Source: a virus (Duplodnaviria; Heunggongvirae; Uroviricota; Caudoviricetes). From it: a stretch of 64,000 nucleotides of DNA. Shown in pieces: positions 5,233 to 62,197 of this stretch; within the stretch, counting starts at the first letter, position 1, and every line of letters starts with the position of its first letter. The notes under the pieces were generated by a model that had not been told where the DNA came from, did no database searches, and saw only the letters and a program-made list of their open reading frames with translations. Location of the stretch: the IMG/VR virus record IMGVR_UViG_2778260994_000001, one strand, 5' to 3'. The position numbers were made by a program, and so were the translations under genes.

Positions 5233-5622
5233 TTAAATCACCGGACAATCATCAAATTCCCCACTTCGGGCATCATTGATGACATGAGTGATCACACCAA
5301 AAACAGCATTACTGCCCGTGTATCCATCGTCATCTACTGGTAACGCCTCTTTCTTCCCGGTGCTTAAATCCTCCAGGTGCTGGCGCGGATACTTCCTGTA
5401 TCTCTTTATGCGATATTCACCCTCCATAGCGCACACAAGCAGAGAACCATCAACCGGAGTAAGCGAGGAATCAACCACCAGCAAAGCACCCTGCAATATT
5501 CCCTCACGGTGATGGCTATCAGCTGCCCGCATGAAGTAGGTTGCTGATGGATGCCTGATTAGTTGCTGATCAAGAGAAATTCGGCTTTCAACATAATCCG
5601 CCGCAGGAGAAGGGAAGCCCAT
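5233..5622 (-). CDS. humD: UmuD'-like SOS mutagenesis protein (S24 LexA-like peptidase fold)
   Basis: 129 aa, UmuD-like C-terminal domain; GAGGTG RBS 9 nt upstream; LexA box immediately upstream. Confidence 0.85.
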   Translation of the reverse strand: MGFPSPAADYVESRISLDQQLIRHPSATYFMRAADSHHREGILQGALLVVDSSLTPVDGSLLVCAMEGEYRIKRYRKYPRQHLEDLSTGKKEALPVDDDGYTGSNAVFGVITHVINDARSGEFDDCPVI

Positions 5623-5641
5623 AGCGTTTTCACCTCAATAA

Positions 5642-5661
5642 TACTGTTCATTTATACAGTA
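5642..5661. promoter_or_regulatory. LexA (SOS) box in the humD / 5797 divergent region
   Basis: TACTGTTCATTTATACAGTA fits CTGT-N8-ACAG with flanking TA/TA. Confidence 0.7.
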
Positions 5662-5796
5662 TACATTAAAGAGACACCTTTGGTGCAAACGCGTTACGTA
5701 CATCAACAACCGCTGATGATTTTGTGCGCTTTGCTACTATTCATCACCAACGGATCAGCGTAACCTCGTTGCCAATCAGTTAATAAGGAATTAGCT

Positions 5797-6369
5797 ATGC
5801 CTAATCGCATTCCTCTCGATCCTGTATTGCCCAAAAATTTTGACTGCACTCCTAACGAGAAACGCTCTAAAGCTCAGCTGGACGCCTGGTGGGACCATCC
5901 CTATGGGGTTACAGAACATGACGGGAAAATTGTTGTTTATTGTCTGAATGGTGGCGCGTGGGACCGTCCATCCGTGCTTGGTTTGGCAAATAACTATGAT
6001 GAAGCCTGTGAACTTGCCGAAAGACAGCAGGCTAGATGGGTGAAAACACGGTCACAGCCGACATTCATGTTTTCAAAAGAACCGCCATTTATACTGGCGA
6101 GGATGCCGCAGCGACCGGATCATCAACAAGAAATTGTTGCTGAATTTTCCTCAAGGGATGAGATGAATCTCTTCTCATTAAAGCAGGAAGAAAGGGAGCG
6201 CGTCGAAGTGCCTCCAACTCTCGACCACAACCGGATGAACCTGGCCCAACTCGCCTGGTACAGCAAAGAATTAGAGATGTCTATTGCCCGACTTGAAAAC
6301 GAAAAAGCCGCTATCCAAGCCCAGCATGAAGCTGTCATTGCCAGGATACGAGAAGTTCAAAACGGTTAA
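5797..6369 (+). CDS. Hypothetical protein (190 aa), divergent from humD across the LexA box
   Basis: ATG with AGGAA RBS; C-terminal coiled-coil-like segment; occupies the position of P1 lxr as recalled. Confidence 0.6.
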   Translation: MPNRIPLDPVLPKNFDCTPNEKRSKAQLDAWWDHPYGVTEHDGKIVVYCLNGGAWDRPSVLGLANNYDEACELAERQQARWVKTRSQPTFMFSKEPPFILARMPQRPDHQQEIVAEFSSRDEMNLFSLKQEERERVEVPPTLDHNRMNLAQLAWYSKELEMSIARLENEKAAIQAQHEAVIARIREVQNG

Positions 6370-31746: not shown

Positions 31747-34001
31747 ATAGCCATAACGTCATGAGCAACACCACGAGTGTCTCCCTTACAAGACACAGAA
31801 CGTCTGGCAAAGAGAGGTTCCACTCTGAAGCCTCTGTCCTGATAAAGTTCTCTGACGTTTGGCGCGCCACTGTTAGTAATGAGTACCTTTGCACCTCGGC
31901 GATGAGCATCCGTCAACAGAGACACCAGGCGTTTTTGCTCTTCAAACTTAAAGTCATGACCGGAATAGTTCGTGAACCCCTCTGTATTGGGGAGCGGTTC
32001 ATACGGCGGATCGCAAAAGATGACATCTCCTTCTCCGGCAGCTTCAATCACTGCTGCAAAATCACCGCATACAAACTCAGACCGCCCTTCCGCACCGAGG
32101 AAGGCTTCCATCTCCTGTAATGGGAAATACGGAGTTTTATACTTCCCATAACCGACATTGAACTCACCGGCCTGGTTGTAGCGCGTCAATCCGTTAAAAC
32201 AATGACGGTTCAGGAACAAAAACGCCGCTGCGCGATGTAAATCATCATAGACTTGTTTGTTAAACGCATTCCGTACTGCCAAGTATCCCTCCTGGGTGTT
32301 GTAGTCCAGGAAAAAACGATGTGCCAGAGTGATAAGTGAATGCTCCTCGCGTTGCAGAGTCTTGTAAAAGTTAATCAGGTCAGCATTCACATCATTTAGC
32401 AGATTTTCCTGGTATCCGGCATTCATGAAGACAGCTCCGCCACCGACGAAAGGTTCAATCAGGCGCTTCCCTTCTGGCAAATAGCGAAAGATTTGTTCCA
32501 GAACACCAAATTTTCCACCGGCCCATTTGAATATGGACCGTTCGAATTCTGCCGCTGGTTTAACTTTTCGCTCTTTTGTTTCACTTCCTTCTTTCTGCCG
32601 ACATACGGCCTTAGTAATCCGATCGCCAATCCAGCGCATTACTGGTATTGCCATACTATTGCCGATCGCTTTGTAACGCGGTCCGTCAGCTGCAAGCATC
32701 GCGGCCTCTTCTTCGCTTAAATCTGGATAGTGATTGCGAAGATATGCCAGTTCATCTGAATTAACTTTTTTACGCTTTTCCGTCGGGATCAACGTATGCC
32801 CATCAGGAAAACCTTGCAGCCTTTCACATTCGACAGGGGTAAGACGGCGGACAGCTACTTCTGCGTTTCTTACTTCATAGCAAACAGCTGTTGGATTTTT
32901 AGCCATTAGAGATGGTGAAGTATTCTTAGTTGCAGCATGTTGTGTACCGCTCATACGCTCAGGAAAAGCCAATGTAACAAGATGCTCATGGCTTTCTTGC
33001 TCACGTGCCCGCAATGTACCATGCCCTTCTGACCAAAAACCTGCTCCTGTGCTGCTAAAAACGGCAAGGTCAGTGGCATCTTTAAAATCTCTTGCCTTTA
33101 CTGTCGATGCGGTTTCATCGTCAATATATTCCCCAAATGCCGCCATCCTGAAAGCGTTTACGACTTTCGTCGATTTCATACCGGGTGGCATGTCAGCGTG
33201 TAGGCATGGATTTAGGCTTTCGCCACTGATTGCAGCGCCATTTGCAATAATGGCGGAAGCGATTTCCTTCTTTTTTCGGCTCGGCGCAATATTCCGGCGC
33301 ACGCCTTCGAACTCAAAAAGTACCGTTGCGGGATCGAGGTCTGTTCGAGCACTTGCGACAACAAACACGCGTCGGCGTCGTTGTGCCACTCCGAAGTATT
33401 GGGCATCAAGGATTCTCCAGGCCACCTTTCGCTGCGGTCCATAAATACAACCACACTGCGGCCACTTTGGAGCATGGCAACCGGTTTTGACATCCCACCG
33501 CCAGAACGTGTTACTTTTTCGTGATTCAGGTCGATCACCAGGTTCGAATGGCGCATCTTCTCCAGCCAATCCGGCAAGGAAACATCCGAACGCGTTGTCT
33601 GCTGATGACAGGACTCCTGGGACATTTTCCCAGACGATAACTGTCGGTTTGAGGAAGGACTCAGACCGTTTGTCGTCAATTGCATTTGCAAGCTCCACAT
33701 ACTTCAAAGTTAGCGCGCCGCGTTCATCATCAAGCCCACCACGTAAGCCCGCGATACTGAATGCCTGACAAGGCGTACCCCCGACGAGCACATCAGGGGC
33801 TTCAATTTCTCCGGCCTGGACTTTTTGGGCGAGTTTTGTCATGTCGCCAAGGTTCGCGACATGGGGCCAGCGGTGCGCAAGAACGGCAGATGGAAAAGGC
33901 TCGATTTCAGCAAACCACGCCGGACGCATACCCAACGGTTCCCATGAAATGCTCGCGGCTTCAATTCCACTGCAAACAGATCCATAGCACAGCTCTCTCA
34001 C
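31737..34001 (-). CDS. dmt: Fused bifunctional DNA methyltransferase: N-terminal C5-cytosine MTase domain, C-terminal Dam-like N6-adenine MTase domain
   Basis: 754 aa; PCQAFS (motif IV), ENV (motif VI), [12 protein letters not shown] in first half; KWAGGK and DPPY in second half. Confidence 0.9.
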
Positions 34002-34903
34002 TGCTTAGCCTCTCCGCCCAGGGCATTTACCAGAGCATCAACCAGGCACGAAATTTCACTGGTTAACAGGAAGAAATCTGCGTCCAGTCGCTGCGCAACA
34101 TCTTCACTATCAATATCAGAGTTCTGCTCAAGCAATTCATCCGCAAATTTGACGCTGGTAAGGCTGAAATTATGGTCCAGTGTAAATTTAATGCGGTTCT
34201 GCCAGTCGAGTGCCAACTTTGTGACGAGCTTGCCAGCTTCCAGGTGTGTGGAAATTTCATCGCTTCCCAAATCCTGCTTTTTCACTCGGGCGATACCGCC
34301 ATCCTCAAGCACGGCCTTAAGTTCTGCCGCATTCCCCATTTGAAATCCCTGTGGAGCACTAGCATCACGTACCCAGTCGGTCAGCGTTAACTCAATGGGA
34401 TTTTCAACACTTAGTGGCACAACAGGAAGAGAACCCAGAGACTTACGCATAAGCGCGAGCATATCCTCTGCCTGCCGCGCGCTGGCATTGATATAGATGC
34501 GTTTAGTTGAACCGTCGTAGATCGCCTGGATAACAGAAAACTTTGAAAAAGCCCGTGGCAGAAGAGAATGTAGAACTTCGTCTTTCAGGGAGTCCTTCTC
34601 TGTTTTCTTCAGTTTACGCGCTTGTTCTTGCTCAAGTTTTTCAATTTTTTCTTGAATAGCTCGCTGAATAACCGGCGGGGGAAGAATTTTTGTTTCGCGC
34701 TTTGCTTCAACAAGGATAAAACCATTTCCATGCATAGCGATAACTTCGGAATTATCACCAAATGGAGATACAAAACCGAACTTGGCCATATCCTGACTAC
34801 CGCATGGCGTGAAAAGGATCATTTTCTTTTTATCTTCTAAGTCGGTCAGATCCGCCTCACGAGAAAGTTTATAAATAGTAATGTTTTTCCAGTGCTTAAA
34901 CAT
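33998..34903 (-). CDS. hrdC: RdgC-like recombination-associated protein (start at internal Met; ORF-track start 35017)
   Basis: [16 protein letters not shown]...[14 protein letters not shown]...[25 protein letters not shown] aligns with E. coli RdgC as recalled. Confidence 0.85.
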
Positions 34904-35183
34904 GTTGTAACCCTTGAATATCAACCACAGAAAGCTCGTCTTTGTAGAAAAATGCCAGGTTGTGGCACCCCCTCGTTTGAGCGTATGAGCTGGGACCAAT
35001 TTCGTTCTTCCAGACAAATGGCTTCAAATCCGTACGGCGAAGCATAAAAACGCGATTTGTTCCGCTCTGATTCCCAATGAGGCAAAAGCCTTCTTTCACC
35101 TTGATAGCCTGCAAGTTGTCGAGTTCACCGCTGGTTACACGGCTATCGAACTCTTTGCGGCTTATTAGCTCCATCTGCATCTG
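34896..35183 (-). CDS. Hypothetical protein (about 95 aa; annotated 118-aa start at 35252 lies inside the operator)
   Basis: Internal Met [11 protein letters not shown] preferred because the 17-mer operator covers the upstream ATG. Confidence 0.45.
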
Positions 35184-35251
35184 ACGACTCCAAACAAATG
35201 CCCATTGAAGGGCGATGGCTGAATGGTACCGAAAATACGACATAAAAAACA

Positions 35252-35268
35252 ATATTTATTAGAGCAAT
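35252..35268 (-). promoter_or_regulatory. C1-operator-like 17-mer (ATTGCTCTAATAAATAT, 16/17)
   Basis: Minus-strand match at the head of the uhr-like/hrdC/dmt gene string. Confidence 0.5.
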
Positions 35269-35349
35269 TTTGCAATAGTTGAACTCCATGTAGTCCACAA
35301 ACAACCTGAGTTAAAATAACGAAAACCAGAGCAAATAATTGGTGATGAC

Positions 35350-35634
35350 GTGGCAAGTATTGCAACAAAAGACAGCATTTGTTCGGGGCACGGAGGATTC
35401 CCATCCAGGCCTCCTGTAGAGAGTGAACCACTACTTAAAGTCAACGGAGTCGAAGTGTTAGTTGATGGTAAGCAATATGCACAGCATACCGATGGAAACA
35501 GTACGCACGGTGGGCAAGCTATATCAACCAGGGCATGGTTTACCGTCAATGGTAAAGGGATCGTATGCGTTGGTGACCCTGTTTCATGCGGATCTACCGT
35601 AGCGTCCGGAGACGGCCTGGTTCAGGTAAGTTAG
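35350..35634 (+). CDS. Small Gly-rich protein, possibly PAAR-like (94 aa, GTG start)
   Basis: SGHGG and GDPVSCGS patterns loosely resemble PAAR-repeat proteins; weak. Confidence 0.4.
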   Translation: MASIATKDSICSGHGGFPSRPPVESEPLLKVNGVEVLVDGKQYAQHTDGNSTHGGQAISTRAWFTVNGKGIVCVGDPVSCGSTVASGDGLVQVS

Positions 35635-35642
35635 GAGATATC

Positions 35643-36431
35643 ATGCTGGAAAAAGACTACCAGTTATCCGCATATAAAAAATTGGCCGCCGCCGGTGGGA
35701 TGAAAACACCTGGTGCCATAACATCGGCACGAAACAGTGCTAACACAGCAAAACTGCTTGCAGAAGAATTGACCGGATTAATTCTGGATACAATTGTCTA
35801 TCCCGACACTATTACCAGCTATGTTTCAACGATCAGAACAACCACAACCGGCTTAACGAACATTGGAGAACTGGCAACTAAGCACGCGGACCTGTTGGCT
35901 GGTTATGCAGATCTGTCAATGCTGCTTCAACTCGATATTGGTTGGGATGTTTACTGCCGTGCTAATGAGCGAGAAGTATCAGAACTGCCGATCTCTATTG
36001 CCATTGGTGATGTGACTATTACTAAATCGCTTGAGGACGCTGTAAACGCGCTTAATACATCAAGTTTAGTCGCTGCTATGGGGGAGATTAACCAGACCCT
36101 TAACACTGGCTCAGGAAGCTCGTCAGGCTCTGGTTCAGGCGGCGGCACTGCCACTCCCCCACCAGCACTAACAGAAGAGCAAATTGAATCTCTGAAAGTA
36201 GCAACTGAACAGTTTGGGGTTGTTTTCAACCAGACAACAGCGCCCACAACTGCGTTACAACAGCAGTATGAACGAGCGAATGAAAGCGCCAATGTAGCCA
36301 TAACTGCTTATAACCATGCTATCGGTACTGCGCTTGCGGAAGCATCAGCAAATAAGGCCAGCACAGCCAGCGCAGTTGCTGCTTTGGTTCCTGATTCTGT
36401 TCTTGATGAATTAAACAAAGCGGCACAGTAA
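35643..36431 (+). CDS. Hypothetical protein with Gly/Ser-rich linker (about 262 aa)
   Basis: AGGAG RBS before the ATG at 35643; internal TGSGSSSGSGSGGGTATPPP linker. Confidence 0.6.
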   Translation: MLEKDYQLSAYKKLAAAGGMKTPGAITSARNSANTAKLLAEELTGLILDTIVYPDTITSYVSTIRTTTTGLTNIGELATKHADLLAGYADLSMLLQLDIGWDVYCRANEREVSELPISIAIGDVTITKSLEDAVNALNTSSLVAAMGEINQTLNTGSGSSSGSGSGGGTATPPPALTEEQIESLKVATEQFGVVFNQTTAPTTALQQQYERANESANVAITAYNHAIGTALAEASANKASTASAVAALVPDSVLDELNKAAQ

Positions 36432-36470
36432 CAAAGGACTTCATTGATAATTTTTCTTCAGGAGGAAGAC

Positions 36471-36893
36471 ATGTCATTCTTTTCTACGTTAAAAACAGCT
36501 TTGTCTTTGAAGGAGAAACTTGCTGCTACTGGTGTTCTTGTTCTGATTTGCGCACTTGTTGGTGCTGGGTTTGCATGGGAACGTCATCAGCTAAAGCAAG
36601 CCATCGAGAAAATTGGCAGTCTTGATCAGGCTGTTAAGGAACGTGATAAGTCAATAATGGATCTTAACCAGACCATTGAGACGATGAACAAAGCAGAGCA
36701 ACATTTTCACAGCCAGGAAGTGAAAAATGAATCAGAACAAGCCAAATATGCTGACAGGCAAATGGAACGAAAAGCTGAAGTTCAGAAACAACTGGTTGCG
36801 GCGGGTAATGTTCGCCAGCGCATTCCTGCTGACACTCAGCGGTTGCTCCGGGAGTCGATCAGCGAATTTAACGCCGACGCCGACAAAGGTTAA
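36471..36893 (+). CDS. Inner-membrane spanin-like protein (N-terminal TM plus periplasmic coiled coil)
   Basis: AGGAGG RBS; TM segment ATGVLVLICALVGAGFAW then charged coiled-coil sequence. Confidence 0.5.
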   Translation: MSFFSTLKTALSLKEKLAATGVLVLICALVGAGFAWERHQLKQAIEKIGSLDQAVKERDKSIMDLNQTIETMNKAEQHFHSQEVKNESEQAKYADRQMERKAEVQKQLVAAGNVRQRIPADTQRLLRESISEFNADADKG

Positions 36894-37059
36894 CCACCCT
36901 GCCCCCAAAAGTGCATTTATGTGCAGAATGCCAGAGTTTAGCAGTGAATATTTTGATGATCTGCCAGCGTATATCCTCGATACAGAAACGATGCTGATGG
37001 GGATTAACAGGAAGAATCGCAACGTTAATGATTACAACCGCGCTATCAGCGGTAACTAA
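36808..37059 (+). CDS. Outer-membrane spanin-like lipoprotein, overlapping the 3' end of the previous gene in another frame (start uncertain, 36727-36808)
   Basis: Lipobox LTLSGC followed by Pro-rich segment; overlapped architecture typical of spanin pairs. Confidence 0.4.
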   Translation: MFASAFLLTLSGCSGSRSANLTPTPTKVNHPAPKSAFMCRMPEFSSEYFDDLPAYILDTETMLMGINRKNRNVNDYNRAISGN

Positions 37060-37477: not shown

Positions 37478-37502
37478 AACCGGCTTTGTTGGCCGGTTTT
37501 TC
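37478..37502 (+). terminator. Intrinsic terminator
   Basis: AACCGGC-tttgtt-GGCCGGTT followed by TTTT. Confidence 0.65.
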
Positions 37503-41510: not shown

Positions 41511-41637
41511 ACCTTCCTCCCCTCCTCCCGAAAAAATAAAAAAATTGCTTGTCACGAGAAAGTCAACAAGTGACTTTCAATAAAATCTCTTCCGAAAAGG
41601 GATTCACACAAGTGCCTTGTGTTTAAGGAAGAGTAAA

Positions 41638-47128: not shown

Positions 47129-47725
47129 ATGGCTGTGATTCCAATGTCGTACTCCCCGGGTACTGTCGCTCGTCGATTTTCGATCCTGGACGGAGTTACC
47201 ATCCAGGGTGTGCTTTACCAGGTTATATGGGATTCCAAAACCCCATTTGCAGCTGTAATAGAGGCTGCGCCTTCTATTATCGATGGTGATATGCGCCATA
47301 AGGTTGTCGCTACTCTTGAACTTCAACGTCGCCCGCAGCTTGAAGGCGTACTGGTAAGGAAGTTCTGGGAGGATAGCGATGTTGCCCAGATTGAAGGTAT
47401 CGTGGTTGATGGAACCGTCCGGGATGTCGGTTTAGCTACTTTTGTTTACGAAACCGTAGCCTCAAAAGCTGGTGTTGTTTTGCTCAGTGATAATGAGCAA
47501 TACGAAGGTGGAAAAGCTCTTTGGCAACACATCGCCCGTCGCTCTTCCGAGCTAAAAGTGTTTATCCTTGACACCGATGCCGCTCAGTATTACCCGTTTG
47601 ACGGCGAACGTGTTTGCTATGACGGGGTAAGTATTCCTGAATCCGAGATATGGAGTGAACACCCAGATCGAAGTAAGCATGGGGTTGTTCTGGTCGCTGA
47701 ATCCATAATTGGAAATGCGGCATAG
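47129..47725 (+). CDS. Hypothetical protein (about 198 aa; ORF-track start 47093)
   Basis: GGGGG RBS before the ATG at 47129. Confidence 0.6.
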   Translation: MAVIPMSYSPGTVARRFSILDGVTIQGVLYQVIWDSKTPFAAVIEAAPSIIDGDMRHKVVATLELQRRPQLEGVLVRKFWEDSDVAQIEGIVVDGTVRDVGLATFVYETVASKAGVVLLSDNEQYEGGKALWQHIARRSSELKVFILDTDAAQYYPFDGERVCYDGVSIPESEIWSEHPDRSKHGVVLVAESIIGNAA

Positions 47726-47907
47726 CAGTAAAAAATTCCTTGCTCCTTAAAAGGGGAGAGGGTTAATCTACGTATGCTAAGCATAGAGATGGCCTCAGAT
47801 TAATGTTAAGCGTCTTGCAGGACGCGTAATGTTATCTGGGGCTTTCTTCTATCTGCTTTTCGGGTAATGCCTGAAGCAGATAGCCTCAAGCACCCGTAAC
47901 GATTGTA

Positions 47908-62119: not shown

Positions 62120-62197
62120 CAATCACCCCGTCCGCAGGGCGGGGTGACAAGTTACTTCTCTTACAATGAGGCTTCACAACATTGATTAGGGAAAATC

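Follow-up and report, generated by a model that had tools for sequence, protein, structure and literature searches.

UpfC of a P1-like phage-plasmid as a PAAR-type spike-tip protein encoded in a conserved pair with upfB

Gene content of the upfC locus

The locus lies in a 64,000-nucleotide stretch of viral DNA (IMG/VR record IMGVR_UViG_2778260994_000001), the whole of which is called the window. It consists of a short open reading frame and the genes that follow it on the same strand, and the gene for the tail spike is found upstream. The features are as follows:

35350-35634, plus strand: upfC, a 94-aa open reading frame with a GTG start and a TAG stop at 35632-35634, assigned to a PAAR-type spike-tip protein
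35341-35345, plus strand: possible weak Shine-Dalgarno sequence GGTGA, 4 nt 5' of the upfC GTG, as read from the sequence
35643-36431, plus strand: upfB, 262 aa, with an AGGAG ribosome-binding site at 35633-35637; the product is reported to form trimeric "tripods" on the spike tip (PMC12810830)
36471-36893, plus strand: ppfA, 3' of upfB, a candidate Rz-like i-spanin gene (PHROG_89, Rz-like spanin, E 5.1e-25)
36727-37059, plus strand: mlp, a candidate Rz1-like o-spanin lipoprotein gene overlapping ppfA out of frame (PHROG_30284, E 2.2e-77)
37478-37498, plus strand: terminator-like GC-rich hairpin with a T run, from a consensus scan only, just 5' of oriR and repA
25388-26020, plus strand: gene 5, encoding the trimeric spike gp5 (OB fold and beta-helix, no lysozyme domain), the blunt end of which is capped by UpfC

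The window is a P1-like phage-plasmid that is 95-98.5% identical to P1 and its relatives at the nucleotide level. In a megablast search with 34800-36600, 18 phage records were matched, which belonged to the P1 family (Punavirus) without exception. The identities to vB_EcoM-Ro157c2YLVW and the P1 reference NC_005856 were 98.5% and 95.3%, respectively. Since upfC is annotated under this match, the frame at 35350-35634 was identified as P1 upfC. It corresponds to P1_gp066 of NC_005856, with equal length and the same GTG start (the 2004 annotation facts on P1 used here were taken from the notes of this GenBank record). Furthermore, 93 of the 94 residues of the product were identical to PDB 9VYI chain A (9vyi_A, "UpfC"), and the sole substitution was S86 in the window for A86 in P1. 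The two genes differed at 14 nucleotides, comprising 13 synonymous third-position changes and one non-synonymous change, which points to purifying selection. Thus, the gene is the already characterised upfC of P1, and its spike-tip role is not a new finding.

A large protein collection held 71 UpfC homologues, nearly all of 94 aa, and many of them were on contigs as long as a P1-like phage-plasmid (about 80-100 kb). The GTG start and the weak ribosome-binding site, together with several NCBI entries that call homologues "alanine racemase", might be taken to mean that upfC is a chance open reading frame or a mis-called gene. However, the length of 94 aa was kept over the 71 homologues, the substitutions were 13 synonymous against one non-synonymous, and both a confident fold prediction and a solved structure are available for the product. 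A chance or mis-called frame is therefore exceedingly improbable, and upfC is a real, conserved gene. In the relative L007, the upfC homologue has a strong AAGGAGGAG and an ATG at the position matching the weak Shine-Dalgarno sequence and GTG of the window. The antisense frames overlapping upfC on the minus strand (35259-35549 and 35165-35431) gave no PHROG match, and no Rfam family was found to overlap 35-38 kb.

The name "alanine racemase" is carried by homologues P0005, P0007, P0009, P0011, P0015, P0028, P0038 and P0042, and also by the SJ46 record KU760857. An all-beta cone of 94 aa is incompatible with a PLP-dependent racemase, so this name is an annotation error copied between records. 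In phage JL22, a "putative phospholipase" is annotated inside the matched 34800-36600 region.

Organization and expression of the upfC-upfB region

The first-pass annotation had described the frame as an orphan gene sitting alone. This description was not borne out: upfB begins 8 nt past the upfC stop and is followed by ppfA/mlp and upfA, all on the same strand. Far from being an orphan, upfC is one half of a conserved pair with upfB, the product of which is reported to be attached to the tip. The upfC TAG overlaps the AGGAG ribosome-binding site of upfB. The ppfA/mlp overlap is followed by upfA on the same strand as upfC, and mlp is annotated in P1 as "membrane lipoprotein precursor". We infer that upfC-upfB-ppfA-mlp-upfA form one transcription unit closed by the hairpin at 37478-37498. 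It is observed that genes for envelope entry (the tip genes) and for envelope exit (the spanin pair) are linked at 35350-37059.

The start codon of upfB was examined. The P1 reference gives a 281-aa UpfB, equivalent to a start at ATG 35586 in the window, which overlaps upfC by 49 nt. Positions 1-263 of the 263-position PHROG_1559 profile aligned to residues 1-262 of the shorter UpfB, and the UpfB homologues in the relatives L007 and L010 begin with ML(D/E) right at the upfC stop. As the profile and these homologues start at MLE/MLD, and an AGGAG precedes this position, ATG 35643 rather than 35586 was taken as the start, and the true UpfB product is probably of 262 aa, with MLEKDYQ as its predicted N-terminus. 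No significant sequence match to UpfB was found among solved structures, and no Pfam family was found for it.

On the other side of upfC, two minus-strand frames were longer than annotated in P1: hrdC at 33998-35017 (339 aa from TTG vs 301 aa) and uhr at 34896-35252 (118 aa from TTG vs 94 aa). The longer frames probably reflect merely in-frame upstream alternative starts. The 94-aa form of uhr matched PHROG_2213 "nucleoside triphosphate pyrophosphohydrolase" end to end.

The product of gene 5 matched PDB 9vzk_q ("Gp5", E 1.6e-136) and PHROG_430 (baseplate hub/tail lysozyme, E 1.3e-51), and its score for the Pfam Phage_base_V OB domain was 22.9 bits, below the cut-off of 23.8. The spike gene at 25388-26020, which is P1 gene 5, ends 9.3 kb before the start of upfC, in agreement with the distance of about 10 kb given in the first-pass annotation. 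At least 45 transcription units have been described for P1, so scattered virion genes are not unusual in this phage.

The annotated LP23 served to define the P1 late-promoter pattern AAGTNACTT-N4-TANNNT, which recovered LP23 at 41568. In the 97-nt gap upstream of upfC (35253-35349), no Lpa-type late promoter was found even at 2 mismatches. The sole promoter candidate was a weak sigma-70-like match at 35311-35339, and the region has fewer such sites than shuffled sequences. The gap also contains the divergent Pdmt promoter and the C1 operator Odmt according to the reference record, and no promoter is annotated for upfC in NC_005856. A second perfect match to the late-promoter pattern was observed at 62149-62167 on the plus strand (AAGTTACTTCTCTTACAAT), the only perfect one besides LP23.

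Elsewhere in the window, the Rfam scan gave gathering-level hits to a sok antitoxin RNA (91 bits), a C4 antisense RNA beside an isrK-like RNA in the immunity region, and three tRNA genes; the coordinates listed are 47721-47895, 51354-51564 and 28992-31061, all on the minus strand. P1 is not known to carry a hok/sok module, and the sok match therefore suggests an accessory insertion.

PAAR family, fold and putative metal site of UpfC

The 94-aa product contains 14 glycines. Both motifs quoted in the first-pass annotation are present, SGHGG spanning residues 12-16 and GDPVSCGS residues 75-82. The PHROG_281 family ("PAAR motif") matched residues 1-93 with E 2e-30. The Pfam family PAAR_motif (PF05488) reached 26.4 bits (gathering cut-off 27; E 8.5e-6) over residues 51-91 only, and most of the homologues bear a precomputed PF05488 match. 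At the sequence level, the match of UpfC to the PAAR-repeat superfamily (PF05488/cd14671) is thus marginal in Pfam and clear elsewhere. [quoted passage not shown]

The structure of UpfC was predicted using AlphaFold (AF2). The single-sequence run gave a pLDDT of 40.5 and was replaced by a run on a 58-sequence family alignment, for which the pLDDT and pTM were 97.9 and 0.87, respectively. In the Foldseek comparison with the PDB, the significant matches of this model were PAAR cones exclusively. The TM score and rmsd were 0.96 and 0.7 A for 9VYI (the cryo-EM P1 baseplate), and 0.92 and 1.3 A for T4 gp5.4 (4KU0_D). Moreover, the TM scores for 9F4B_BA, VCA0105 (4JIV_D) and c1882 (4JIW_D) were 0.93, 0.88 and 0.87, respectively, and the Foldseek probability was 1.00 for 4KU0_D, 4JIV_D and 4JIW_D. 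According to AF2 and Foldseek, the three beta-hairpins of UpfC are predicted to form a tapered cone with a local threefold crossover. Structure prediction, which had been proposed as a check in the first-pass annotation, gave the PAAR fold at a pLDDT of 97.9. The PAAR likeness noted there therefore stands (PHROG_281 E 2e-30, TM 0.87-0.96), but it is not weak, as had been stated; the resemblance is clear. This result indicates that a PAAR cone can be recognised from the raw sequence alone.

No literal P-A-A-R tetrapeptide is present in the UpfC translation. Residues 2-9, 31-42 and 66-77 appear to replace the PAAR segments, judging from the repeated ..VNG.x.V.V.G.. pattern. H14, H46, H53 and C80 were invariant among 22 and among 58 homologues, with identity down to 40%, and aligned with the His/His/His/Cys of T4 gp5.4. 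In T4 gp5.4, the cone apex has a tetrahedral three-His/one-Cys site holding Fe, and the H14A mutant lost binding to the gp5 spike (T4 study). These four residues of UpfC are accordingly aligned with known ligands, and they are proposed as putative apex metal ligands (three His and one Cys).

Several database labels would place the protein outside the virion. In PHROG, the family PHROG_281 belongs to the category "moron, auxiliary metabolic gene and host takeover", and the JGI name of the homologues is "Zn-binding protein involved in type VI secretion". Moreover, upfC, for which no late promoter was found, is surrounded by plasmid-maintenance and accessory genes. UpfC might then be a moron-type or T6SS-related PAAR protein supplied to the type VI secretion system of the host. 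Nevertheless, UpfC has been modelled in the P1 baseplate (PDB 9VYI), and this virion structure effectively refutes such a function. Its closest solved relatives outside P1 are the spike tips of the KP1 and T4 phages rather than T6SS proteins. In addition, UpfC comprises the cone domain of 94 aa only, with no toxin or adaptor extension, and the homologues are found on phage-plasmid-sized contigs or within a P2-like baseplate cluster. No T6SS genes were seen in the neighbourhoods of UpfC homologues that were examined, and the neighbours in the window are phage and plasmid genes. Supply to the host secretion system is thus very unlikely, and UpfC is best read as a phage spike tip. The "moron/host takeover" category of PHROG_281 was assigned although the family is a structural protein.

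Several annotation problems can be flagged from these results: the start codon of upfB, the labels "alanine racemase" and "moron" that were copied between records, and a virion gene that carries no annotated promoter.

Conservation of gene order in relatives

In the P1-like relatives L007-L012, UpfC was 56-62% identical, and its gene was followed by one encoding 258-262 aa. The two genes overlap as TAATG in L007. The UpfB homologues in diverged P1-like relatives showed identities of 24-28% (E 1e-18 and 2e-24). A spanin-like gene was also present 3' of upfB in L007 and L010, and the order upfC-upfB-spanin was kept across L007-L012. The picture of an orphan is thereby corrected, as the tip gene is accompanied by upfB and spanin genes.

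In L007, the gp5 homologue (45% identity) was located apart from upfC, with rdgC, dmt and a parM-type partition pair in between. In a P2-like phage, by contrast, a UpfC homologue of 40% identity is encoded at the textbook location, flanked directly by the Phage_base_V spike gene on one side and the gpW/J/I baseplate genes on the other. The separation in L007 and the pairing with upfB, set against the P2-like arrangement, indicate that the displaced position and the partnership with upfB are features of the P1 lineage, while the UpfC protein itself is an ordinary spike tip of contractile tails. In L010-L012, a 226-aa gene at 5321-6001 lies directly 5' of the upfC homologue and abuts its start. 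It was considered as a spike gene, which would have represented an ancestral adjacency of gp5 and upfC, and was rejected (BLASTP E 9.7, no PHROG match).

Published evidence on UpfC, UpfB and gp5.4

A role at the spike tip was put forward for UpfC in 2022, and models of the protein in cryo-EM maps of the P1 baseplate followed in 2025-26. The note to upfC in NC_005856 states that aa 10-93 are 31% identical to the T4 ORF5.4 product. In an HHpred comparison by Gonzales et al. 2022 (PMC9024508), UpfC was aligned with gp5.4, the spike tip of T4, and deletion of upfC left plaquing unaffected. In the same study, LC-MS/MS of purified P1 virions did not reveal UpfC, which the authors ascribed to its single copy per virion and its small size. 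A preprint (bioRxiv 2025.07.21.665459) located UpfC at the tip of the gp5 needle, where an AlphaFold multimer of gp5-gp6-UpfC was placed in the map unrefined. Furthermore, baseplate maps of P1 at 3.2 A with imposed threefold symmetry and at 3.7 A without symmetry were reported in PLoS Pathogens 2026 (PMC12810830). UpfC was built manually, and the spike was described as trimeric gp5 with monomeric UpfC, strikingly similar to T4 gp5-gp5.4. As UpfC is modelled in P1 virion density (9VYI, PMC12810830), its presence in virions, on which the first-pass annotation had made the spike-tip assignment depend, is supported.

In the same maps, three "novel" UpfB trimers (the "tripod") were described as anchored on the spike tip, with UpfB as an AF3 model fitted to medium-resolution density only (PMC12810830). 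It is possible, though not probable in our view, that UpfC acts mainly as an adaptor recruiting UpfB tripods to the tail tip in the manner of T6SS PAAR proteins, with piercing as a secondary function. The stop-start coupling of upfC and then upfB in every P1-like relative examined, despite the 24-28% identity of UpfB, agrees with this, as does the density read as UpfB trimers on the tip. A genome-wide CRISPRi screen of P1, in which upfC and upfB each scored non-essential, also fits. However, recruitment is compatible with piercing, and UpfC shares its cone geometry and metal site in full with T4 gp5.4 and T6SS PAARs. Moreover, the P2-like UpfC homologue has no UpfB-like neighbour, the UpfB density is of medium resolution only, and UpfB is absent from the main text of the 2022 proteomics paper (PMC9024508).

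The dispensability of UpfC was similar to that of its T4 counterpart. T4 gp5.4 and UpfC are the only tail protein pair linked by BLAST between T4 and P1 (E 1e-8), and gp5.4 is dispensable for assembly and plaquing (T4 spike-tip preprint). Nevertheless, gp5.4 gives a 1.55-fold fitness advantage per cycle, and the 5.4am mutant loses in competition (T4 preprint; competition design in PMC12407873). The 5.4am mutant also cannot infect deep-rough LPS mutants (T4 spike-tip preprint). The UpfC tip is likewise dispensable for plaques on laboratory hosts, and by analogy with T4 gp5.4 its benefit is probably quantitative or host-dependent, affecting infection efficiency or fitness. As P1 itself adsorbs to the LPS core, the deep-rough test used for T4 does not carry over to it directly.

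Proposed function of UpfC

With a probability of about 95%, UpfC is the single-domain PAAR-repeat protein that tips the central spike of the tail in this P1-like phage. The monomer folds from three beta-hairpins into a tapered cone. Because of its local threefold symmetry, the cone would dock on the blunt end of the beta-helix formed by the gp5 trimer. The base would be zipped onto this helix by main-chain hydrogen bonds, as described for T4 and seen for P1 (PMC12810830). Judging from their conservation, H14, H46, H53 and C80 may hold a metal ion that rigidifies the apex. Upon contraction of the sheath, the tip would be the first part of the virion to enter the outer membrane, by analogy with T4, P2 and the T6SS. 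In P1, the cone would in addition carry the UpfB trimeric tripods (PMC12810830). Since P1 gp5 has no lysozyme domain, the transglycosylase domain of Sit, the tape-measure protein, has been credited with cleaving peptidoglycan (PMC12810830). The identity of the gene, the fold, the conservation of the ligands, the place of UpfC in the virion and its dispensability are established by the present analysis or by published work, whereas metal binding, membrane piercing and a fitness benefit are suggested for P1 UpfC by conservation and by its relatives.

More tentatively, P1-like phage-plasmids might carry upfC-upfB as a conserved and self-contained "tip cassette", in which the PAAR cone docks a lineage-specific, fast-evolving trimeric UpfB. 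The pair would share a transcript with the spanin genes, would have no Lpa late promoter and would be required conditionally, for the passage of particular host envelopes. This extension is considered doubtful at present. If it were true, the tip cassette would be a hidden determinant of host range or fitness that is missed by K-12 plaque assays, as with T4 gp5.4.

Comparison with known systems

P1 shares the flanks of upfC in the window, with dmt-hrdC-uhr diverging on one side and upfB-ppfA-mlp-upfA-oriR-repA on the other. The gene of the P1 reference differs from that of the window by one substitution and 13 silent changes, and the window is nearer to vB_EcoM-Ro157c2YLVW.

The tip of the Klebsiella phage KP1 variant vB_Kpn_Lilla1 (9F4B chain BA), solved within a baseplate structure, shared 31% identity with UpfC at a TM score of 0.93. 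This chain is deposited as "Phospholipase", which is a surprising label for a PAAR cone of 97 aa.

The T6SS PAAR proteins VCA0105 (4JIV) and c1882 (4JIW) have the same cone fold as UpfC (TM 0.87-0.88) and bind in the same way to a trimeric beta-helical spike. Their identity to UpfC was 14-22%. In contrast to them, UpfC is phage-borne and has neither literal PAAR tetrapeptides nor an effector extension.

T4 gp5.4 (4KU0, 5IV5) resembles UpfC in being a single domain of about 95 aa, with a three-hairpin cone and a three-His/one-Cys site. It is likewise a monomer that caps the trimeric gp5 beta-helix and is dispensable for plaques, but the identity of the two proteins was only about 28-31%. The T4 gene 5.4 lies near baseplate genes (its PDB name is "segC-Gp6 intergenic region"), whereas upfC is 9.3 kb from gene 5. 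Unlike T4, P1 has a gp5 without a lysozyme domain, and UpfB tripods are added on its tip.
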